Shown here in pieces: positions 26,569-59,653 of a DNA stretch of 64,000 nucleotides. The number at the start of each line of letters is the position of its first letter. The stretch's first letter is position 1. Source of the DNA: an uncultured delta proteobacterium (lineage in GTDB: Bacteria; Desulfobacterota; Binatia; UBA9968). The notes under the pieces are model-generated. The model was not told the DNA's origin and did no database searches. It saw only the letters and a program-made list of their open reading frames with translations. The stretch is taken from the NCBI GenBank assembly GCA_963755715.1, contig CAVWLW010000021.1, positions 1-64,000 of the forward strand, written 5' to 3'. Both the position numbers and the translations under genes were made by a program.

Positions 26569-26774
26569 CGGATTGCTATAACAATAAAAAAATCAGAAGA
26601 CGAGCGGGGTTGACGAAAGGTCTAAAATTGTTATCCGGGTGCACGCCTATCACAGAGCTGCTTGCATGTTTTCGAGCAGCGCTTCGATTCTTGAGGTCTT
26701 CTCTGTAGCCCATCGACGACGTTATTGTTAAATGAGGACGAATTTCGAGAAGGTGTTAAGTCCGATAAATCAAT

Positions 26775-26810
26775 AAAAAAGGGGCGCTGGATTCAGCCAG
26801 CGCCCCTTTT
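26775..26810 (-). terminator. Intrinsic terminator downstream of ABC permease (potentially bidirectional)
   Basis: aaaaggggcgctgg-attcag-ccagcgcccctttt, perfect 14-bp stem with A6 on the left (U-tract on minus strand) and T4 on the right. Confidence 0.85.
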
Positions 26811-26838
26811 GCTAACTTGCGTCTGTTCAGAGCCGTAT

Positions 26839-27681
26839 TTATTCGGCGCCCACCTTGGGCCGCCACTTGTCGAAGCGCGTTTCGTACCGATCGATGACGT
26901 CGGTCATTATCATGCCGGTTATGGCAAAAATCAGCACGCCGACGAAGACCTTATCAGTCTGAAAGGTTGCGCCAGCGACCGTGATCATGAAACCGATGCC
27001 CGCCGTGGCGGCATAGAGCTCGCCGACCATGACGCCGATCAGGGCGCGACCGACCGCTAAACGGAGGCCGGTCAAGATGAACGGAACGGTCGACGGCAAC
27101 ACGACCGATTTGAAAATTTGCCATTCCGAGGCGCCAAAGCTCCGCGCTGCGGTGAGCAGATTGGCCGGCGTGGTTTTGACTCCATCCCGAGTATTGATCA
27201 AGAGTGGAAACACCGCGCCGAGGAAAATGATGCCGACCTTCGACAGGATGCCGATGCCGAGCCATATGATAACCAGAGGTAACAGGGCAACGCGCGGCGT
27301 AGCGTTCATGGCGTTAACAAAGGGGTCGCAAACGTAGGCGAACTTTTTATACCAGCCGATGGCTATGCCGAATGGAATCGCAAAGATGATGGATAGAAAA
27401 TACCCCCAGAAAAACTCAATGCCGCTAACATAAAGATCATTCCAGATTTCGCCCGACGCGAACATCTGCCAAGCCGCCTTCCCAATCATTGATGGCGCGC
27501 TCATAAACATGGGGTTAATGAGACCAGCCCAGTTGCCGATGGTTTCCCAGGTTAAGAGAAACCCAATCACCGAGATCGTGCCGAGGATTTTTCGTTCTTG
27601 ATTGAGGTAGAATTTATATGCGGCGGACGCTTCGGCGACCCGTACATCTAACAATTGTTCTTCTTGAGCGGCATGAGCCAT
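26839..27681 (-). CDS. NitT/TauT (SsuC-like) ABC transporter permease
   Basis: PRVALLPLVIIWLGIG, EAA-like loop AARSFGAS, TGLRLAVGRALIGVMVGE. Confidence 0.92.
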   Translation of the reverse strand: MAHAAQEEQLLDVRVAEASAAYKFYLNQERKILGTISVIGFLLTWETIGNWAGLINPMFMSAPSMIGKAAWQMFASGEIWNDLYVSGIEFFWGYFLSIIFAIPFGIAIGWYKKFAYVCDPFVNAMNATPRVALLPLVIIWLGIGILSKVGIIFLGAVFPLLINTRDGVKTTPANLLTAARSFGASEWQIFKSVVLPSTVPFILTGLRLAVGRALIGVMVGELYAATAGIGFMITVAGATFQTDKVFVGVLIFAITGMIMTDVIDRYETRFDKWRPKVGAE

Positions 27682-27824
27682 AAAGTGACCCCTCCTGTTA
27701 TCTGGTTAGGAAAACGATACCATTTGTTCAGCCTGCGCACCAGTACCAAAAGGGCTTGACCTTGTCAACAGATATCCGTCAGCATTTTGGAGCGAATGAT
27801 GACGGAGTATATTCGTCTGTTATC

Positions 27825-27853
27825 TTGACATTTGTTTAGGTATTAAATATTTT
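27825..27853 (+). promoter_or_regulatory. Putative sigma70 promoter of the radical SAM operon
   Basis: TTGACA (27825-30), 17 bp spacer, TATTTT (27848-53), about 40 bp upstream of ATG 27896. Confidence 0.55.
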
Positions 27854-27895: not shown

Positions 27896-29377
27896 ATGAA
27901 ACTTCTTTTTGTCACACCGCCGATGGGAAATTGGGCGCCTTGGGGGGACCGACATCTAGCGGTCAACTCGCTGCATGCTCAGGTTGCTGCCTTTATTCGA
28001 GAGAAGAAGGTCGCGGACGTGTCGGTTCTCGATTGCCGTGCCCTTGGACTGGACGATGAGCAGATGCTCGATGAGGTCAAAAGGCGGCAGCCCGATGCGG
28101 TGTTTTTCGGGGCGATGATCGCCGCTGCCGGCGGGGCCGCGCAGCTCAACCGTTTTCATGCGGCGATGCAAGGGATCAAAGAAGTTTTACCGAAAACGAT
28201 CACGATCGGCGGCGGCTTGATGTATACGGCCGTGCCGCAGAAGGTCATGGCGGAGAATCCACAGTTGGATTTCGCCATCGTTGGCGTGTTCGGCGACAAC
28301 GAATATCCGCTCTGGGAATTGCTCGAGGAATTGAAAAAGACGGCGCCGAAGCTCGGCGCCATCCGCGGCTTGGCTTGGCGCGATGGCGATGAAATCGTTC
28401 TTAATGCGGCGCGCCCGGTGATTAGCAATCTCGACGAGCTGCCGATGCCCGCATACGACCTTTTCCCGATGGACAAGTACTACGGCTACTCTGTGATTCC
28501 CAACTACAATGAGGCTGTCACTTCCCGAGGCTGCGAAGGGGCATGTCACTTCTGCTATGAATGGTGGTTGGTCGACCCGCGCAATCCGCGTGATTTCAGC
28601 TCCCATCGCACGCGCGGCGGGCGGGCCGTGGCTGATGAAATGGAGCTGCTCAACAAGAAGTATGGCGTCAAAGCGCTGACCTTTATGGACGATGACTTCA
28701 ATTCGGATCGCCAGAAAATGGTCGATCTGGTCGAAGCGCTGGAAGAAAAGAAGCTCGATATGAGCTGGTTTTGTTTAAGCCGGGCGCAGAACTTCATCCG
28801 TGACGCCGATTTGGTGCCGCGCTTGCGAAAAGTCGGTCTTTATCAAGTTCTGATCGGCATCGACGGCGGCACCGACGAGGAAATCGCCGAAGCGCACAAA
28901 GGCCCGATGAAAGTCGGCGTTAAGGAATTGAAAGACCTGATTCAATTCCTGCGCAAGAACGACATCTCGACGATTTCCACCTATCTGAACGGCTTTTGGG
29001 AAGACGACGAAGCCAAAATTCGCCAGCGCGCCAAGGCGGTCGACGAAATCGACCCCGACATCGTCATGATTCAATTGCTCAACCCGATTCCCGGCTCGCC
29101 GATCTACAAGAAAGCCGTCAAGGAAAGCTTGATTGAAATTGACAATCTCAGCCTTTACGACCTCGAGCATTGTGTGATGCCGACCAAACATCTCTCCCGC
29201 CAGCAACTCGGCGAACTGACCGGTTGGGCATTCCAATCTTTCTATGGCAAGCCGGGCAGAGTCGATCGGATCTTGAACGGCTACAGCTCCCCCTATGTGA
29301 AAATGAAATTTCTGTCTTTTAAAGGGAACGCTGCCAAGTACGAAAAAGGCGCGGCGGAAGATGCCGTCGCGATCTAA
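27896..29377 (+). CDS. Cobalamin-binding radical SAM enzyme (class B / BchE-like architecture)
   Basis: N-terminal B12-binding Rossmann domain; TSRGCEGACHFC (CxxxCxxC); FMDDDF; IRDADLV; PIPGSPIY. Confidence 0.9.
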   Translation: MKLLFVTPPMGNWAPWGDRHLAVNSLHAQVAAFIREKKVADVSVLDCRALGLDDEQMLDEVKRRQPDAVFFGAMIAAAGGAAQLNRFHAAMQGIKEVLPKTITIGGGLMYTAVPQKVMAENPQLDFAIVGVFGDNEYPLWELLEELKKTAPKLGAIRGLAWRDGDEIVLNAARPVISNLDELPMPAYDLFPMDKYYGYSVIPNYNEAVTSRGCEGACHFCYEWWLVDPRNPRDFSSHRTRGGRAVADEMELLNKKYGVKALTFMDDDFNSDRQKMVDLVEALEEKKLDMSWFCLSRAQNFIRDADLVPRLRKVGLYQVLIGIDGGTDEEIAEAHKGPMKVGVKELKDLIQFLRKNDISTISTYLNGFWEDDEAKIRQRAKAVDEIDPDIVMIQLLNPIPGSPIYKKAVKESLIEIDNLSLYDLEHCVMPTKHLSRQQLGELTGWAFQSFYGKPGRVDRILNGYSSPYVKMKFLSFKGNAAKYEKGAAEDAVAI

Positions 29378-29391
29378 CGAATTCCCGCGCA

Positions 29392-30165
29392 ATGGCTGCG
29401 CCGTTAAATAATCGCCCCTTGACGGGTAAAATCGCGCTCGTAACCGGCGCGAGCCGCGGTATCGGCGCCGCCGCGGCCGTTCGTCTGGCTCAGGCCGGCG
29501 CCGCGGTTGCCATCAATTATCATCAGAACAAAGAGGCTGCCGAAAAAATAGCCGATCAAATTGCCGAGAGCGGGGGGCGCAGCGCGATCATTCAAGCCGA
29601 CGTGACCGACAAAAACCAAGTCGAGCAGATGGTTGCGGTCGCGCAGCGTGAGTTAGGTGCGATCGACGTTTTGGTTAACAATGCCTATTTTCCCTTCGAC
29701 GTCGGTGCGCTGCACGAACTCTCGTGGGAAAGCTTTCACCGCGCCATCGAGCATGAGCTGTCGGCACTGTTTCATTGTACCCGCGCGTGCGTACCGGCGA
29801 TGAAGGGAAAAAAAGCTGGCCGAATTATAGTCGTCAGCACACGCTTGGCGCAGCAGCCGTTGCCCAGGATGGGAGCCTATGCCGCCGCCAAGTCCGCCCT
29901 CGAGTCGATGGCCAACACCATGGCGATCGAGTTGGGACCCTTGGGGATCTCGGTCAACGTCGTCACGCCGGCGTTCACGTTGACCGATGCGTCGATGATC
30001 ATGCCCGAGGCGTATCGGGAGCGAGTGAAGGAAACTCGGCCGTTGAAAAAGCATCTCTATCCTGAAGATGTCGCCGGCACGATCGCATTTTTGGCCGGTG
30101 ATGAAGCCAGTATGCTCACCGGGAGCCATATCTTGATTACCGGCGGCAGTCATCTGCAACTCTAA
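29392..30165 (+). CDS. Short-chain dehydrogenase/reductase (FabG-like)
   Basis: TGASRGIG, LVNNA, YAAAK catalytic motif. Confidence 0.92.
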   Translation: MAAPLNNRPLTGKIALVTGASRGIGAAAAVRLAQAGAAVAINYHQNKEAAEKIADQIAESGGRSAIIQADVTDKNQVEQMVAVAQRELGAIDVLVNNAYFPFDVGALHELSWESFHRAIEHELSALFHCTRACVPAMKGKKAGRIIVVSTRLAQQPLPRMGAYAAAKSALESMANTMAIELGPLGISVNVVTPAFTLTDASMIMPEAYRERVKETRPLKKHLYPEDVAGTIAFLAGDEASMLTGSHILITGGSHLQL

Positions 30166-30166
30166 A

Positions 30167-30234
30167 AATTGATAATGGATAATTGAGAACGCCCGGATTC
30201 TAAATTTTCAATTATCCATTCTCCATTATCAATT
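30167..30234. repeat. AT-rich palindromic element built of heptamer units
   Basis: aattgat-aatggat-aattgag-aa ... ttttcaa-ttatcca-ttctcca-ttatcaa-tt; arms are mutually reverse-complementary. Confidence 0.7.
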
Positions 30235-30242
30235 GTTTGCCT

Positions 30243-31727
30243 ATGCTTTCTCTCGACGAGATCATCGCTAGACTGACCGAGATTGTCGGTTCGCGACGCG
30301 TTTCCACCAACCCCATCGACAAGATCAACTATCAGCACACGCTCGCTTATGGCGCTTATCGCGCGCTGCCAGATGTCATCGTGCGAATCGAGTCCGATGC
30401 AAACGGCCATCACAAAGTCGCCGATATTTTAAGATTCGCCAATGAGCACAAGATCCCGATCGTCGCCAAAGGCGGCGTCGGTATGGGCATCAGCTCGCCG
30501 CTCAAAGGTGGCTTGCTTCTCGATATGCTCGGCATGGACAAAATCCTTGAAGTCAATCCTGCCCTGCAATACGTGATCGCGGAGGGCGGCGCGAGCGTGT
30601 ACGGCATTCATCACGCCTTGCGCCAGCATGGACTGATGCTGCCGAATTTCGGCACCTATGGTCCCGCGGTCGTCATCGGCGCGATGATCAATAAAGGCGG
30701 CATCGGCTACGGCATGACGCGCTACGGCTGGATTGCCGACATGGTGCTCGGTTTGGAAGTGATATTTGCCAACGGCGAGACCATTCGGCTCGGCGCGCTC
30801 GCGAATCAGGGCACGACATTCGGTCCCTTTCAAAAATGGATTCACCTGCCGGACTTGCTTGGTCTTTTCACCCTCGCCGCCGGTTCCATGGGTATTATCA
30901 GTAAGGTTTGTTTGCGCGCCATCGAAGGCAGGCGCGAGTGGCTGCATGATTACTGCTATTCATTCCGGCGCGATCAACTTGCGGAAGCGCAGGACGCGCT
31001 GATGCAGTTGGTCAAAGGTGAGGTGGTTTACGACATTCATTTCACCGACCGTTGGCAATACCATTGGCCGATGGAAGACGGTTTGTACGATAAACGCAAA
31101 GTTCCTGACGATAGCTGGTTTTTCTTAAAGACGATGTTGATGGCGCGCGATGCAGACGAATTGGCATTTAAAGAGAAACGCATGCGGCGCATTTATCATG
31201 ACGCGGGGGGCATCGACGTACCTGAGATCGCCGAAAAGGGAATGGGCGCTGAAGCGCAAGAGCATGGTCTGCATGGCTGGCCGGACTGGCATATTATGGG
31301 GCCGGACGGCTGGTGTGGCTCGGTGGTGCGCCACACCGGCATGTTCGCGGTCACGTCCAAGATGTATCCGCTGACGTTTCTCAAAGAAATGTATGATCTT
31401 GACGAAGCCGCCAAGCGTGAGAGCGGGCTTTGGGACGCCGAGCATTCGCCGCAGCATGACAGTTACGTCACGCGCGATCTCGGCATCAAAGAAGAGTATT
31501 TCGTCTTCTACAATCCCTATGACGACGAAGACGTCGGCAAACTTCGCAAGTGGATGGGTATGGTGCAGCAATTCAGTAACGAGCGCGGCGTGGTCTGGAC
31601 CGCGCCGACTTTGAGCACCAAAGGGCCGATGCCCTATCAGCGGCTGGGCAACCTTTACGACGTGATCAAGGAGATTAAGCAACTGGTCGATCCCAACAAT
31701 ATTCTGAACCCCGGCGCGCTCTATTAA
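30243..31727 (+). CDS. FAD-binding oxidoreductase, VAO/PCMH (GlcD/D-lactate dehydrogenase-like) family
   Basis: PDVIVR, IPIVAKGG, GLEVIFANGE, GSMGIISK, C-terminal IKQLVDPNNILNPG. Confidence 0.88.
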   Translation: MLSLDEIIARLTEIVGSRRVSTNPIDKINYQHTLAYGAYRALPDVIVRIESDANGHHKVADILRFANEHKIPIVAKGGVGMGISSPLKGGLLLDMLGMDKILEVNPALQYVIAEGGASVYGIHHALRQHGLMLPNFGTYGPAVVIGAMINKGGIGYGMTRYGWIADMVLGLEVIFANGETIRLGALANQGTTFGPFQKWIHLPDLLGLFTLAAGSMGIISKVCLRAIEGRREWLHDYCYSFRRDQLAEAQDALMQLVKGEVVYDIHFTDRWQYHWPMEDGLYDKRKVPDDSWFFLKTMLMARDADELAFKEKRMRRIYHDAGGIDVPEIAEKGMGAEAQEHGLHGWPDWHIMGPDGWCGSVVRHTGMFAVTSKMYPLTFLKEMYDLDEAAKRESGLWDAEHSPQHDSYVTRDLGIKEEYFVFYNPYDDEDVGKLRKWMGMVQQFSNERGVVWTAPTLSTKGPMPYQRLGNLYDVIKEIKQLVDPNNILNPGALY

Positions 31728-31747
31728 TCAAAGAAGGAGAGAAGATT

Positions 31748-32542
31748 ATGGGACTCGGAAGGCAAGATTTTTCCGGCAAGAGGCTTGCGCCCCCTGAAGC
31801 CGACGCCGTGGTGGCCGATCTAAAAAAATATCTGGCTGATATCGCAGAGCGCTGGCTCATCAAAGGACGTTTCCATACCGATATGGCTAAGGGCACGCTG
31901 CCGATGGAAGCGATCCAAGTATTTTGGCAGAACTGGTACGGCTTTGTCGCCGAGATCAACAATTTTCACGGCGTCGCCTACCAGCGCCACTTGCCTTTTT
32001 TCAAGCGCCATCCCGAGCTGCAAAAACACTTTGCCAACCATGTCGCAGACGAAATGATCCATCCCAAACCGCCGGGGCACATTCAAATCGTGCTCGAGCA
32101 AGGCCGCAACTTCGGTCTCACCAACGATCAAATGATCGAATATGAGATGCTGCCCGAGTGCCGAGCGTTTCTCGAATATTATCGCGGCGTGCTCTATGAA
32201 GGCACGATGGTCGAGTGGTGGGCATCGTTCTGTGTCGAGGAAGCCGTGGGCCACTGGGCCAAGTTCTTCGGCGGTACGCTCCGGAAGAACTTTAATATTC
32301 CGGAAGACAAGATCGTTTACTTCCGCATGCACGCGCAGGCCGATCTCGAAGAGCACGACGGCGTGATGGCGCACGCCGACCTGGATTGGATGGTTCTGAA
32401 AAAATTGCTCGAAGAAGGCAAAGCCGACACCCGGCCGGGATTCAATTTAGAATATTGCCTGCGCACCGGCACAGCCTATTTTGCCTGGTTCTTCGAGGGG
32501 GTCTACCAATGCGTTAAAAAAGAAGGATTCTACAAAGTTTAA
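31748..32542 (+). CDS. Heme-oxygenase-like helical diiron enzyme (PqqC/CADD/TenA superfamily)
   Basis: All-helical pattern with DE...H (DEMIHPKPPGH), VEE, and YFRMHAQADLEEH matching the HDO E/H/E/H/D/H ligand arrangement. Confidence 0.72.
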   Translation: MGLGRQDFSGKRLAPPEADAVVADLKKYLADIAERWLIKGRFHTDMAKGTLPMEAIQVFWQNWYGFVAEINNFHGVAYQRHLPFFKRHPELQKHFANHVADEMIHPKPPGHIQIVLEQGRNFGLTNDQMIEYEMLPECRAFLEYYRGVLYEGTMVEWWASFCVEEAVGHWAKFFGGTLRKNFNIPEDKIVYFRMHAQADLEEHDGVMAHADLDWMVLKKLLEEGKADTRPGFNLEYCLRTGTAYFAWFFEGVYQCVKKEGFYKV

Positions 32543-32544
32543 TC

Positions 32545-33567
32545 ATGGGCGAAACCAACAACGAAGAGCTGTCGCCCCGCCGGTTGATGCGGATCCTGGG
32601 AGATTTCGCGAATAGCCAAATCCTCGACGCCTCAATCGAATACGATTTTTTCACACTCATCCACAAAGGCCTCCAATCCGCCGAAGAAATCGCGCGCGCG
32701 GCCGGAACGGATGCACGCGCCACGCGTATTGTTCTCGATAGCCTGCCGGCTTTAGGCTTGATCGAAAAGCGCGGTGGTAAATACTTTCTCACCCCCACGG
32801 CCGACGTATTTCTGGTCAAAGAGAAGCCCTCTTATGTCGGGGATTTTCGCCACGTGGCGCTGGCGCTTTGGGACGGCATGGCTCATCTCAAGGAGTCGCT
32901 CAAGACCGGCAAACCGCTCAGCCGCATGGACACCGGTGCCGAATTGCAAGTGTGGGAAAAGTTAGTGCTCGGCATCATCGTCATCGCCGAGCCTGCGGCG
33001 AAAGCGCTCTGCGATATCCTAAAAATCGGCAGCGCGCGCAAAGGGATCAAAGTTCTCGACATCGCCGGTGGTTCGAGCATTTTCGGCATGACTATTTTGT
33101 CCCGGGATCCATCAGCGCAGGTCACACAACTGGATTGGCCCAATGTGAATGCGGTCGCTAAGAAAGCTAATAAAGAGCGTGGTCTGGACGGCAAGATCCG
33201 TTTCATCGACGGCGAGCACCATACGGCGCCCATCGAAACGAATTATTACGACTTAGTTCTCGCCAGCAATTTTTGCCGCTTCGAATCGCCCAGAGGGAAT
33301 CAGGAACTATTTGCTAAAGCCTATTCGGCGCTCAAACCCGGCGGTATCTTCGTCGTCAACGACTTTGTACCGAACGAGGAGCGCACCGAACCGACTTTCG
33401 CGTTGCGCTTTTCCGTTTACACTTTGACGCACACGCCGGAAGGCGAGTGCTGGACGTTGTCGCAGTATTCCGACTGGTTACAGAAGGCGGGCTTCAAGTC
33501 GATTGAAATCCATGGCGATATTCCGAAGACATTGCCAGGAACGACTTTGATTGTGGCGAAGAAATAA
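32545..33567 (+). CDS. SAM-dependent methyltransferase, O-methyltransferase family 2 (dimerisation domain + Rossmann)
   Basis: Winged-helix N-terminus (SAEEIARAAGTD...LGLI), VLDIAGGS, LDWP, ALKPGG, WLQKAGF. Confidence 0.88.
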   Translation: MGETNNEELSPRRLMRILGDFANSQILDASIEYDFFTLIHKGLQSAEEIARAAGTDARATRIVLDSLPALGLIEKRGGKYFLTPTADVFLVKEKPSYVGDFRHVALALWDGMAHLKESLKTGKPLSRMDTGAELQVWEKLVLGIIVIAEPAAKALCDILKIGSARKGIKVLDIAGGSSIFGMTILSRDPSAQVTQLDWPNVNAVAKKANKERGLDGKIRFIDGEHHTAPIETNYYDLVLASNFCRFESPRGNQELFAKAYSALKPGGIFVVNDFVPNEERTEPTFALRFSVYTLTHTPEGECWTLSQYSDWLQKAGFKSIEIHGDIPKTLPGTTLIVAKK

Positions 33568-36161: not shown

Positions 36162-37562
36162 ATGCAATACCTAGCGATTTGCGAGGACGATCTATTATTC
36201 CAGTTTATGCGCAACGTTGCCGACGAGCAGGGCGAGGTGCGCTACCTGGTTCCCAATGACAAGATCGCGCGCGCGATCAAGCGTCAAGGCGGCAAGGTAT
36301 GGCACGGTGACTTGCTCAAGGAAGAGACTTACAAGAAGGTCAAGCTTCACTACATCGATCAAGCGATCGTGTTTATCCGCGACGGCGACTTGCAAGACCG
36401 CGTCTGCCGGCTCCTGCGCAGTCTCGACAAGATGGTTTCGATCGTGTCGTTGACTTCGGACAATAACGGTAATCATAAGGAACCCGCCGATCCCCTGCTG
36501 CGCCACCTTCAGTTGTCCAATATTTTCGAAGAGTTTTGCGCTTCGCAACTGCTTGACACGTTGAATATCAAGAAGGTCGAGCGCATACGCTCGCTGTTCG
36601 CCAGCGGCAAGAAGATCCATATTTTGCTACAACACGATCCCGACCCGGACGCCATCGGCAGCGCTTTGGCGCTGCGCGAGTTGCTCGGGCGCAATCGGGC
36701 GACGACCCCGATCGTCACTTTTGGCACCATCACGCGGCCGGAGAATTTGGCCATGGTGCGTTTGCTCGACATCCAGATCGAGCAGATTTCCTACGAGGAT
36801 CTGCACAAGGACGGCGCCCGCTTGGCGCTTGTCGATGTGCAGCCGCCTTACTTCGAGAAGCCGTTGGGGCGTGTCGACCTCGTGGTCGATCACCATCCCA
36901 AAAGAATCGCCTTCAAAGCGCGCTTCGCCGATCTGCGCAGCAACTATGGCGCGACCTCGACGATCTTCACCGAGTATTTGCGCGCCGCGGGCATGGAACC
37001 GTCGCAGCGCCTGGCGACCGCGTTGGTTTACGGCATCAAGACCGACACGTTGTTTCTCGAGCGCGGCAGCAACCTGGCCGACCTGAGCGCGTTTAATTTT
37101 CTCTACCCGATCGCCAATAAGGCGATGATCTCGCGCATCGAGCGGCCGGCATTGCCGCGGGAAGATTTGGAAGCGATGGGACGCGCGCTGAGCCGGCTGC
37201 AAGTCGAAAACGGCGTCGCCGTCATCCATTTGGGAGAAATCAATCGCGAAGATGTGATTCCGCAACTGGCGGAGTTCTGTTTGCAAATCGAAGGGGTCGA
37301 TTGGAGCGTGGTTTCGGGTCTGGTCAAGGACCGGGTGGTCATCTCGGTGCGCAACGTCGGCTATGTCAAAAGCGCCGGCGAAATCATGAAAAAACTCTAC
37401 GACGACATCGGCAGCGCGGGCGGTCATCGGGCGATGGCCAAAGCGGTTGTGCCCCTAGACCGTTTCAAGGAAAGATTCGGCGAAGTGAGCGAGCGAGTGA
37501 TACGAGAGGCCATGGTGCCGATGATCGTCGACCGCGATCAGATCGAGCTCGTCTTAAATTAG
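36162..37562 (+). CDS. DHH/DHHA1 phosphoesterase with N-terminal TrkA-N/RCK-like domain
   Basis: DPDAIGSA, LVD, VDHH, GIKTDT, SVR, AGGH; N-terminal Rossmann-like segment (HGDLLKEETYKK). Confidence 0.85.
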   Translation: MQYLAICEDDLLFQFMRNVADEQGEVRYLVPNDKIARAIKRQGGKVWHGDLLKEETYKKVKLHYIDQAIVFIRDGDLQDRVCRLLRSLDKMVSIVSLTSDNNGNHKEPADPLLRHLQLSNIFEEFCASQLLDTLNIKKVERIRSLFASGKKIHILLQHDPDPDAIGSALALRELLGRNRATTPIVTFGTITRPENLAMVRLLDIQIEQISYEDLHKDGARLALVDVQPPYFEKPLGRVDLVVDHHPKRIAFKARFADLRSNYGATSTIFTEYLRAAGMEPSQRLATALVYGIKTDTLFLERGSNLADLSAFNFLYPIANKAMISRIERPALPREDLEAMGRALSRLQVENGVAVIHLGEINREDVIPQLAEFCLQIEGVDWSVVSGLVKDRVVISVRNVGYVKSAGEIMKKLYDDIGSAGGHRAMAKAVVPLDRFKERFGEVSERVIREAMVPMIVDRDQIELVLN

Positions 37563-38200: not shown

Positions 38201-39247
38201 GTGATCGCCGTGACGAATTGGCCAGCTGCAAGATTCTGTTGGCGCCTGACGTTCATTGGCATCGCCTCACTCGGATTGCTACTCCCTTTCATTGCTCCAC
38301 GGCGAGCAGTCGGGCAAATCAAATCAAACCTGTCCTCCAGCGTCACCAGCGAGAGCATGACCCACGTCTGGGTGGCGCGCGACCGCGGCTTGTTCAAAAA
38401 ATATGGCCTCGACATGCAGTTCATTCTCATGCCGCGCAATCCTCTGGCCATCGCTGCGTTGCTTGCCGGCGAGATCGACGCCGCGATCGTCGGTCCCGGC
38501 CACCTCGTCAATGCCGGATTGAGCGGCGCGGATGTCATCGGTATCGCCAACTTTAATCAAAAACTGGACTTCCGTCTTAATACGCGACCAGAGATCAAGA
38601 AGCCGGAAGACCTCCACGGCAAACGGATCGCAATCAGCGGTCCGGGATCGACGTCGCATCTGGTTACGATGCTTTCGCTCCAGGGACTCAACGTCGATCC
38701 GATTCAAGCGAAGATTGCATTTCTGACGATACCGGGGACGGAAATGAACCGGCGCCTGGCGCTTGAGAGCGGCAGCGTAGACGCAACAACGCTCAGAGGC
38801 GCGATGGGCGATCTTTATGCCAACAAGGGTTACACCCTGCTTTATAATTTAAAGGCTGCCGGTGTAACGCTGCCGCAAAACATGATGGTGACGACGCGGC
38901 GCACAGCAGCAACCAAGCCGGCGGTGATCGAAGGCTACTTGAAAGCGACCATCGAGGCGATCGCGATGATCAGCGATCCCGCAAACAAGGAACTCGTGAG
39001 TCGGCTTTTGGCCTCGAACCTGCGCTTGAGCAATCCGGCCGATGTCGAGGAGTCCTATCAGGCCGTGATTTCCAATTATGAACGCGCGCCGCACACCACC
39101 ATAGAAGGAATGAAGCGGCTGCAAAAGCTTTTGATTCAGCTCAACCCCAAGATCGCTGAAGTGCGCGTCGAGACTCTCATCGATAACTCGTTCATGAACA
39201 AGCTCGAAAGCTCCGGTTTTATCCAGAGCCTGTATAAGAAAAACTGA
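38201..39247 (+). CDS. NitT/TauT (SsuA/THI5-like) ABC substrate-binding protein
   Basis: WVARDRGLFKKYGLD, ALLAGEID, DLHGKRIAISGPGS; start uncertain. Confidence 0.85.
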   Translation: MIAVTNWPAARFCWRLTFIGIASLGLLLPFIAPRRAVGQIKSNLSSSVTSESMTHVWVARDRGLFKKYGLDMQFILMPRNPLAIAALLAGEIDAAIVGPGHLVNAGLSGADVIGIANFNQKLDFRLNTRPEIKKPEDLHGKRIAISGPGSTSHLVTMLSLQGLNVDPIQAKIAFLTIPGTEMNRRLALESGSVDATTLRGAMGDLYANKGYTLLYNLKAAGVTLPQNMMVTTRRTAATKPAVIEGYLKATIEAIAMISDPANKELVSRLLASNLRLSNPADVEESYQAVISNYERAPHTTIEGMKRLQKLLIQLNPKIAEVRVETLIDNSFMNKLESSGFIQSLYKKN

Positions 39248-58684: not shown

Positions 58685-59653
58685 ATGAAAAGAAAACGAA
58701 TTTTTCATCGACTTCGATTCGCGATTTTCTGCAGCTTGGTTATGACAGTGTCATCGCTCGGCTCGCCGTCATTGCTGCAAGCCGAACGCGTGACCATCGC
58801 GACACCGAGCCGCGGTCTGTTCGAATTTCCCGTCGTCGTCGCCACGCGCAAGGGATTTTATAAAAGCGAAGGGATCGACGTGGACAAAGTTCAGATGCAG
58901 CCGGCCGTCGGCGTCAAAGCTTTAATCTCCGGCGATGTCGATTATTTGCTCGCTTGGGGATCGGCGCTACGCGCGGCGGTGACCGGCGTCCCCATCAAAG
59001 CCGTGGTCGGCATCGCCGGCCGGCCCTTGCATGTCCTGGTTGCCCGCCCTGAAATCAAGACGCCAAAAGACCTGAAAGGAAAAGTGATCGGCGTCGACTC
59101 GGTTGCCGGCACGGTGGATTACCTTTCGCGAGTCGCCGTGCGCCATTTTGGCTTCGAGCCGGAGAAGGACGTAAAGATCATCGTCACCGGCGAAAGCCCG
59201 ACGCGCTTGGCTGCGCTGCACGCCGGCTCGATCGATGCGACGGCGATCGATGTCGCCTTTGCCGTGAAGGCCGAAGACGAAGGTTTTAGGCGACTCGTTT
59301 ATCTCGGAGACCTCATCGAATTGCCGTTGTCGGGTATGGCGGTCACGGACCATAAGCTCCAAACCCAGAGGGATCAAGTGAGACGAGTCGTGCGTGCCAC
59401 GGTGCGCGGCACGCGCTACTTGAAGCAGAATCGGAGCGAGATGGTGCAGATGCTTGCCGATTATCTGCATATTACGCCGGGGCAGGCGGCCAGAGCCTAC
59501 GACGCCTCGATCAACTCGTTCAGCGACGACGGCACGATTTCCGACAAAGGCGTGCAGCTGGACGTGCAGCTTACGAAAGAAAGACTCAAGCTGACCAAGG
59601 ATATTCCGTTGAGCCAATTGGTGGATTGGAGTTTGGTGAAGGAGATAAAATAA
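58685..59653 (+). CDS. NitT/TauT family ABC substrate-binding protein
   Basis: KGFYKSEGIDV, ALISGDVD, DLKGKVIGV, AALHAGSIDA. Confidence 0.87.
   Translation: MKRKRIFHRLRFAIFCSLVMTVSSLGSPSLLQAERVTIATPSRGLFEFPVVVATRKGFYKSEGIDVDKVQMQPAVGVKALISGDVDYLLAWGSALRAAVTGVPIKAVVGIAGRPLHVLVARPEIKTPKDLKGKVIGVDSVAGTVDYLSRVAVRHFGFEPEKDVKIIVTGESPTRLAALHAGSIDATAIDVAFAVKAEDEGFRRLVYLGDLIELPLSGMAVTDHKLQTQRDQVRRVVRATVRGTRYLKQNRSEMVQMLADYLHITPGQAARAYDASINSFSDDGTISDKGVQLDVQLTKERLKLTKDIPLSQLVDWSLVKEIK

Follow-up and report, generated by a model that had tools for sequence, protein, structure and literature searches.

A five-gene operon specific to one family of Binatia encodes a B12-binding radical SAM enzyme, a predicted dimetal oxidase and a methyltransferase, and may tailor a small molecule

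We describe here a five-gene operon from an uncultured member of the Binatia. The window, that is, the whole stretch of DNA analysed, comprises 64,000 nucleotides (64 kb) of contig CAVWLW010000021.1 (C21 below) and belongs to a genome of 7.4 Mb that is 93.6% complete (G000 below). The genes encode, in order, a class B radical S-adenosylmethionine (SAM) enzyme, a short-chain dehydrogenase/reductase (SDR), an FAD enzyme of the VAO/PCMH superfamily, a predicted heme-oxygenase-like dimetal oxidase (HDO) and a family-2 methyltransferase. We found that the operon is genuine, vertically inherited, co-regulated and confined to a single family of the class Binatia, which we call f1. Its enzymes are of known families in a combination unmatched to any characterised pathway, and nothing shows new chemistry. 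We consider it reasonably probable that the operon tailors a pre-existing small molecule by an oxidise-and-methylate route and builds no scaffold of its own.

The five open reading frames (ORFs) all lie on the + strand between 27896 and 33567, with intergenic gaps of 14, 77, 20 and 2 bp. The 77-bp gap is counted from the flavoprotein ATG at 30243, the start that is common to the orthologues; a TTG at 30237 is also open. An earlier note on this DNA had described five co-oriented genes with these gaps behind a promoter, and the ORF coordinates, the Pfam matches and the promoter scan all agreed with that description. The five Pfam family assignments exceed the curated cut-offs, and only PF14518 (Haem_oxygenas_2) on the HDO falls narrowly below. 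The features are the following.

27824 to 27853, + strand: sigma-70-type promoter, CTTGACA-17 bp-TATTTT, with a conserved spacer (..GTATTAAATA) and a probable overlapping operator
27896 to 29377, + strand: class B (B12-binding) radical SAM enzyme, 493 aa; PF02310 and PF04055
29392 to 30165, + strand: classical SDR, 257 aa; PF00106/PF13561
30243 to 31727, + strand: VAO/PCMH-superfamily FAD enzyme, 494 aa; PF01565; of a subfamily without a characterised member
31748 to 32542, + strand: CADD-like dimetal HDO (predicted); PF03070, AlphaFold2 model and Foldseek
32545 to 33567, + strand: family-2 SAM-dependent methyltransferase with an N-terminal dimerisation domain, 340 aa; PF00891 and PF08100

When we looked through the Pfam hits of all ORFs of at least 100 aa in the window, no polyketide synthase, non-ribosomal peptide synthetase, terpene synthase or other scaffold-forming gene was seen among them. 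The intergenic gaps are too short to hold a precursor peptide. The earlier statement that the locus lacks such synthases and a precursor of a ribosomally made peptide product therefore stands.

To obtain the locus set, one genome per species was scanned with the HDO, and this gave 66 loci, nearly all from metagenome-assembled genomes (MAGs) labelled Binatia or 'Deltaproteobacteria'. The five genes were present in the same order and on one strand in 47 of these; in 15 the set is cut by a contig end, and the remaining 4 are exceptions in which it is rearranged. The genes are thus syntenic in related genomes, a point on which the earlier note had hung its reading. Median identities across the loci, from the radical SAM enzyme to the methyltransferase, were 86, 77, 88, 85 and 83%, the SDR varying most (60-86% identity in 59 loci). 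Since the flanking genes show similar identities, this protein conservation reflects relatedness and not an unusual constraint. Clustering of the ORFs of the loci gave the five genes as the common core, with varying flanks (a permease in 34 loci, a DHH gene in 38 and an M24 gene in 23). A TauC-type permease lies divergently upstream in 37/66 loci, and a two-domain VOC protein is encoded downstream in 19.

The rearranged loci were informative. The radical SAM gene is absent from three loci, yet all three genomes (3/3) carry an orthologue of 76-79% identity elsewhere, which in two of them adjoins an EamA-type transporter. In the third genome the set is split into a piece with the radical SAM and methyltransferase genes, still beside the DHH gene, and a block of HDO, SDR and flavoprotein. 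This second piece (L059) reads cupin, HDO, SDR, flavoprotein, CCG protein, hydrolase and PlsC-type acyltransferase. Because one genome splits the set along that line, the arrangement suggests two sub-modules, a SAM-dependent pair (radical SAM enzyme and methyltransferase) and an oxidative trio (SDR, flavoprotein and HDO).

The DHH phosphoesterase gene (36162-37562) was also considered for a sixth place in the operon. It comes after the methyltransferase gene in 40/66 loci and is retained in the split genome. However, its product is a distant GdpP/NrnA-like protein, followed in locus L272 by archease and RtcB, and we read it as a housekeeping neighbour.

The distribution within the class was estimated from a sample of its genomes. 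At E <= 1e-30, a flavoprotein match was obtained in 56 of the 63 f1 genomes, and the 337 genomes from 19 other families gave none. The radical SAM enzyme was present in 77/89 f1 genomes and in 30 of the 31 high-quality ones (completeness of 90% or more, contamination of 5% or less), with G000 counted among them. Each tally includes three unpublished genomes, all matching (G630, G640 and G682 for the flavoprotein; G706, G640 and G682 for the radical SAM enzyme), and without them the counts are 53/60 and 74/86.

Some irregular records were also observed. Six loci with 76-89% HDO identity are labelled Verrucomicrobiia, Udaeobacter, Limnocylindrales, Acidiferrales or Eisenbacteria, and these labels may be binning or labelling issues. 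The flavoprotein gene at G672:C13:318184-319666 is in two overlapping pieces with one in-frame TGA, and the radical SAM gene at G709:C7:51023-52502 is likewise in two overlapping pieces; both may be broken copies or assembly indel errors. A 586-aa protein call (P0410), 99% identical to the window, has both the HDO and the methyltransferase domains. Probably the 2-bp gap between the genes was bridged by read-through or a frameshift, and the two proteins are not really fused.

Upstream of the radical SAM gene, the promoter scan detected TTGACA-17-TATTTT at 27825-27853. Such sites are not enriched in the region (6 found against 5.1 expected from shuffles), and the promoter is credible because it is conserved across loci, not because of the site count. 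In the 47 loci with at least 150 bp of DNA upstream of the radical SAM gene, the block CTTGACAATcgTTtAgGTATTAAATAtTTT is kept in 47/47 while the surrounding sequence diverges. The spacer (27831-27847) is conserved as strongly as the -35 and -10 hexamers, which suggests a putative overlapping operator, or regulator site. A weight matrix of the block gave a single match in the 7.4 Mb of G000, the operon's own site, and therefore no wider regulon is indicated. Weaker variants of the promoter precede the relocated radical SAM gene (L270) and the SDR gene of the remaining four (L039); in the split genome, the motif still stands before the piece with the radical SAM and methyltransferase genes, with a weight-matrix score of 40.7. 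Control by a riboswitch or other RNA was rejected, as an Rfam search gave no family ahead of the operon and just three sub-threshold hits near 26710-26844.

Each of the five genes is covered in part, with 90-100% likeness, by contigs from RNA libraries (four libraries from four studies of soil and rhizosphere); stretches of the operon without such cover are no evidence of absence. One contig of 2737 nt, with 48 differences, spans 28142-30875 and crosses both the radical SAM/SDR and the SDR/flavoprotein junctions. The operon is probably expressed.

The radical SAM enzyme has an N-terminal B12-binding domain (PF02310, 38.7 bits against a cut-off of 32.1, residues 29-130) and a radical SAM domain (PF04055, 43.7 bits against 29.5) with the cluster motif C213-EGA-C217-HF-C220 (CxxxCxxC). 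Its best NCBIfam match is BchE (TIGR02026), with 161 bits against 481.35 over residues 33-438. The further matches, all far below cut-off, are a P-methyltransferase family, HpnJ (111 bits), PhpK, the 'lipid biosynthesis B12-binding/radical SAM' model (81), HpnR (71) and BzaD (TIGR04385; 68.7 against 450). Among 1.84 billion 50%-cluster representatives, full-length matches of 40-50% identity came from just four clusters and the next ones lie at 36% or less, and word-index searches with this enzyme and the methyltransferase returned only close relatives of at least 84% identity. The Joint Genome Institute (JGI) product name for near-identical proteins is 'anaerobic Mg-protoporphyrin IX monomethyl ester cyclase'. 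The enzyme may be a methylase or a BchE-like oxidase. A second radical SAM paralogue of 54-59% identity occurs in about one quarter of the family genomes (about 25 besides L273); at L273:7977-9422 it adjoins a hemerythrin-domain gene.

As for the corrinoid, G000 encodes CobT and two CobS-like proteins at C1:82530-94520, on contig C1 and not on the operon contig C21. CbiC was not found in this 93.6% complete genome, and no BluB scored above cut-off. G000 thus looks like a corrinoid salvager without a recognised synthase of 5,6-dimethylbenzimidazole. Because CobT and CobS are there and CbiC is not, the cobalamin that the radical SAM enzyme is predicted to use would come from salvage.

The AlphaFold2 model of the HDO has a mean predicted local distance difference test score (pLDDT) of 92.5 and predicts a seven-helix heme-oxygenase-like fold. 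With this model, Foldseek returned CADD (CT610) at the top (template modelling score, TM, 0.84 on the target), then PqqC, TenA, UndA and BesC; the proposal that the protein has a heme-oxygenase-like fold was thereby upheld, with CADD as its nearest structure. In 19 HDO sequences down to 30% identity, E69, E102, H111, E164/E165, H195, D199 and H203 are invariant. E102, H111, E165, H195 and D199 fall within stretches that align with the DE..H, E and HEEAD motifs of CADD, and H203 lies one residue past the corresponding CADD histidine. A ligand set of three histidines and three carboxylates on the core helices is given as the HDO signature in passages of a 2026 mini-review, which also puts the validated HDOs at about a dozen among more than 10,000 (PMC13108848). 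Residues E102, H111, E165, H195, D199 and H203 fit this signature and predict a dimetal site.

CADD and NePabS, self-sacrificing p-aminobenzoate synthases within the HDO superfamily, share this helical fold and ligand-type pattern with our HDO. The sacrificial residue of CADD is Tyr27 (PMC9522330). The profile alignment places CADD F26-Y27 opposite F42-H43 of the HDO, the tyrosine column being M or H in relatives, and the score against TIGR04305 (CADD) is 26.1 bits with a cut-off of 200. A CADD-type p-aminobenzoate synthase was rejected, as His43 replaces the sacrificial tyrosine. A single-turnover cofactor synthase also fits ill, because G000 holds nine HDO paralogues, counting the operon copy.

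The other eight paralogues of G000 (L174-L180; C30:78203 and 82667, C64:79478, C51:16135 and 52574, C69:175249, C34:44368, C12:18920) have 30-43% identity and form an expanded family without characterisation. Seven of the eight have transport or catabolic-type genes nearby, among them genes for NMT1/THI5-type binding proteins, cupins, UbiD, amidohydrolase_2, Mo-hydroxylases and dienelactone hydrolase. A cupin also adjoins the HDO in several loci (L059:5101-6834; L153:1611-3258), and a metagenomic protein of 388 aa (P0049, 55% identity) is a cupin-HDO fusion, which suggests that cupin and HDO are a functional pair.

The flavoprotein carries an FAD_binding_4 domain (PF01565, 99.1 bits against 26.4). 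In single-sequence searches PCMH, VAO, EUGO and GlcD match the FAD domain only; PCMH is the best such match in the PDB (68 bits, residues 59-223), and the alignments to PCMH, VAO and EUGO end at about residue 225-260. A profile that included distant relatives (A7) gave only the D-lactate dehydrogenases LDHD (150 bits, positions 5-481) and LctD (130 bits) as full-length matches, while alkyl-dihydroxyacetonephosphate (alkyl-DHAP) synthase matched it in the FAD domain only and more weakly than LDHD or PCMH. The name 'VAO flavoprotein' in the earlier note is therefore right for the superfamily and does not hold beyond it. The HxGDGNxH stretch of LDHD, whose histidines we take to be metal ligands, aligns with H405-DSYVTRDL; Tyr and Arg stand at the His and Asp positions, and the motif is not conserved. 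The score against the GlcD equivalog (TIGR00387) is 83 bits with a cut-off of 568, and an Atlas look-up returned only unnamed FAD-oxidase clusters. GlcD/LDHD enzymes with a GlcF-type partner resemble our protein in the full-length profile match, and distant relatives and the L059 variant do sit beside a CCG iron-sulfur protein; in contrast, the operon itself has no CCG partner.

The adjoining SDR (PF13561, 192 bits; PF00106, 173 bits) has the motifs TGASRGIG at residue 18 and S149...Y163-AAA-K167. In 4-alkylphenol catabolism, a methylhydroxylase is paired with an alcohol dehydrogenase of the SDR type. The operon resembles the pairs for p-cresol and 4-ethylphenol in that a VAO-superfamily flavoprotein adjoins an SDR; it differs in the PCMH match, confined to the FAD domain, and in having no cytochrome subunit.

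Both domains of the methyltransferase score over cut-off (PF00891, 45.5 bits; PF08100, 43.1 bits), and LDIAGG at residue 171 supplies the glycine-rich SAM-binding motif. Among solved structures, the uncharacterised 2r3s is closest (132 bits), and DsyB, RedM, MfnG and SibL come next. DsyB, SibL and RedM presumably methylate S, C and N, respectively. As the solved relatives include such enzymes, the acceptor atom is not fixed as oxygen, and the earlier term 'O-methyltransferase' is kept as the Pfam family and dropped for the acceptor. A route like that of dimethylsulfoniopropionate, with the SDR as keto-acid reductase, a DsyB-like methyltransferase and an oxidative decarboxylase, was also considered; only the likeness to DsyB and a weak DddP match spoke for it, and it was rejected.

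We next turned to relatives outside the family. HDOs of 54% identity are found in two Acidobacteria MAGs in co-oriented clusters, one with a DmpG aldolase, a 346-aa SDR and the alpha and beta subunits of a Rieske dioxygenase, the other with a cupin, a meta-cleavage-type hydrolase and LigB. A 48%-identical HDO in an Actinomycetota MAG is encoded near a PaaA/C gene. Radical SAM proteins of 40% identity are widespread in Omnitrophota, and 0/80 of their loci have other genes of the operon (flavoprotein, HDO, methyltransferase) nearby. On one Omnitrophota chromosome (L260:5144-16070), the radical SAM gene is preceded by genes for a nucleoside phosphorylase, MtnA, a class II aldolase and an aldehyde dehydrogenase, and followed by a small ORF, a PanE-like reductase and two FabF genes; loci L188 and L220 are similar. 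L260 may be a lipid-modifying cluster whose upstream genes resemble salvage of methylthioadenosine/5'-deoxyadenosine. Four flavoprotein relatives of 29-31% identity from other families of the phylum (L262-L265) are each beside a CCG iron-sulfur protein, three of them also beside one or two SDRs, and L263 adds a UroD-like methyltransferase, a corrinoid protein and an old-yellow-enzyme homologue (OYE). Because distant flavoprotein relatives sit beside SDRs, the SDR-flavoprotein pair looks like an older module. On this gene-content evidence, the five-gene combination appears as an invention of family f1.

In the oxidise-and-methylate route that we favour, the SDR would interconvert an alcohol and a ketone, and the FAD enzyme would dehydrogenate a C-H/C-OH position. 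The CADD-like dimetal HDO would use O2 for C-C cleavage, desaturation or oxygenation. The radical SAM enzyme would either C-methylate an unactivated carbon or oxidise a methylene without O2, as does BchE, its nearest named relative, and the family-2 methyltransferase would cap a hydroxyl or other nucleophile. As substrate we guess at an acid or phenol of aromatic or other hydrophobic character that is imported or drawn from primary metabolism, and this type is preferred because of the contexts of the HDO relatives. The earlier note had called the locus a tailoring-only operon that builds or remodels a small molecule. Tailoring is still the best reading; the role may be biosynthetic or catabolic, as the nearest outside relatives of the HDO and the flavoprotein lie in catabolic-looking clusters.

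Several observations weigh against this reading. No enzyme reaches a curated equivalog cut-off, so that the catalytic assignments are at superfamily level. A regulator or complete transporter adjoining the operon was not found among the Pfam hits of the window ORFs, and a search with the window methyltransferase as query found no orthologue in one genome. The five genes do not co-occur outside f1, which leaves no independent second instance, and the nearest outside relatives of the radical SAM enzyme, beside two FabF genes, point to lipids. The guess of an aromatic substrate draws on relatives of at most 54% identity, and 30% for the flavoprotein. The AlphaFold2 model of the flavoprotein, from a 12-sequence alignment, has a pLDDT of 42, and a pocket is not derivable from it. 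Finally, one RNA-library contig (27825-27989) reaches back to the -35 hexamer, farther upstream than a transcript would be expected to start; the RNA-library contigs may be compatible with DNA carry-over, and a single transcript is not proven by them.

Among the rivals, we regard as unlikely a catabolic or detoxifying operon that degrades or disarms an imported aromatic or methoxylated soil compound and makes no product for the cell's own use. The ring-hydroxylating, meta-cleavage and PaaA/C contexts of the 48-54% HDO relatives argue for it, as do the surroundings of seven of the eight other G000 paralogues, the corrinoid methyltransferase system and OYE beside the flavoprotein relative of L263, and the permease and VOC genes that flank many loci. 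However, SAM methyltransferases, like class B radical SAM enzymes, are known from biosynthetic routes and are not typical of catabolism; a regulator, an ATPase or a binding protein is not adjacent to the operon; and NMT1-type binding proteins are common all over G000, so that their adjacency to paralogues may mean little. The near-universal presence and vertical inheritance of the set in the family, in a housekeeping neighbourhood, also speak for a different role. Tailoring of a lipid tail, by which a methyl, methoxy, keto or unsaturation would be placed on a fatty-acyl or isoprenoid membrane lipid, seems doubtful to us. The PanE-like reductase and two FabF genes after the Omnitrophota radical SAM gene of L260, the matches to HpnJ, HpnR and the lipid model, the presence of the fatty-acid HDO UndA among the structural neighbours, and the hydrolase and acyltransferase that follow the oxidative block in L059 are all consistent with it. 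Against these stand the lipid-type scores, which are all far under their cut-offs, and the HDO, whose closest structure is CADD and not UndA. Further, the likeness of the flavoprotein to alkyl-DHAP synthase is confined to the FAD domain and below that to LDHD or PCMH, and the operon has no acyl carrier, acyl-CoA ligase or membrane-anchored enzyme.

It is also conceivable, if rather improbable, that the radical SAM enzyme and the HDO are anaerobic and aerobic alternatives for one oxidation, as BchE and AcsF are; this would be compatible with tailoring. BchE, the nearest named family, is a non-methylating oxidase, and the HDO is of the O2-activating type. But the three genomes in which the radical SAM gene has left the operon still keep it, and because of this retention, and because the gene is as widespread as that of the flavoprotein, neither enzyme looks dispensable. 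We regard it as very unlikely that the operon tailors the lower ligand of a cobamide (benzimidazole or phenolic), in analogy to BzaC, BzaD and BzaE. The bza pathway employs a class B radical SAM methylase and a family-2 O-methyltransferase, the same pairing as here, and G000 salvages corrinoids, as described above. However, the BzaD score is far short of its cut-off, the operon is not near cobT/cobS, and there is no ThiC-like synthase of hydroxybenzimidazole near it. BluB is not complementary to the operon either: across the class it was found in 4/63 genomes of f1, 67/94 of f6 (62/89 without five unpublished genomes), 11/20 of f103 and 0 in most other families, so that many families have neither, and the four f1 genomes with BluB also hold the flavoprotein. 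A remnant of the bacteriochlorophyll pathway (bchE and bchU), as automatic annotation suggests, is barely credible. The B12-binding and radical SAM architecture and a family-2 methyltransferase are indeed shared with BchE and BchQ/R/U, and bchE and bchU homologues are described as ubiquitous in Binatota in passages of Murphy et al. 2021 (PMC8262859). However, the BchE score is one third of its cut-off, and BchU/CrtF reaches 31.5 bits against 276 in the N-terminal dimerisation region only. Here the two genes stand with those for an SDR, a flavoprotein and an HDO, no bch gene is seen among the window Pfam hits, and the set belongs to one non-phototrophic family; the same passages report that a reaction centre is absent and that key steps are missing (PMC8262859). 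Since the curated cut-offs for BchE, BzaD, CADD and GlcD are unreached, the operon product is not bacteriochlorophyll.

We return to small-molecule tailoring as the preferred reading. No described pathway with this gene combination was found in the literature and no curated pathway-enzyme model was reached, in line with the earlier view that this is not an already characterised pathway. The pairing of an O2-sensitive with an O2-using enzyme, which the earlier note had called notable, is correctly described and is not unusual: in the fosfomycin and thienamycin clusters, too, an O2-using non-haem iron enzyme accompanies a class B radical SAM enzyme.

The rest of the window is housekeeping in character, with rpe, rsmB, fmt, def, priA, pilMNOPQ, aroCKBQ, exbBD/tonB, ArnT, UppP and nuo genes. 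A lone TauC/SsuC-type permease of the ATP-binding cassette type (26839-27681, - strand) is divergent from the operon, with no ATPase gene near. Orphan genes for NMT1-type binding proteins occur at several places in the window (38201-39247, + strand, and 58685-59653, + strand, among them), again with no ATPase gene near. The M24 neighbour gives the weak DddP match, with 37 bits against a cut-off of 600.

In passages of Murphy et al. 2021, homologues of bchE, bchU and bchQ/R are described in Binatota without reaction centres, as possible 'gene shrapnel' (PMC8262859). On the strength of these passages and the JGI product names, the 'bchE' call in Binatota most probably refers to the radical SAM enzyme of this operon and not to chlorophyll synthesis, and a likely mis-reading of Binatota genomes would thereby be corrected. 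A decidedly speculative extension is that the operon leads to a family-specific, undescribed methylated metabolite or cofactor, with the BchE-like radical SAM enzyme as an O2-independent oxidase that acts in the same route as the HDO or as its low-oxygen stand-in. If true, one operon would hold both the anaerobic and the aerobic solution for a hard C-H oxidation, and the 'bchE/bchU gene shrapnel' of non-phototrophic Binatota would be explained. The operon would give a defined, testable gene set for the class B radical SAM enzymes, the HDOs and an uncharacterised clade of the VAO superfamily, three groups that have received much study although most of their chemistry lacks an assignment, and it offers a clear target to enzymology and to the study of uncultured soil bacteria. 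Its product could serve as a metabolite that marks this lineage of abundant soil bacteria.

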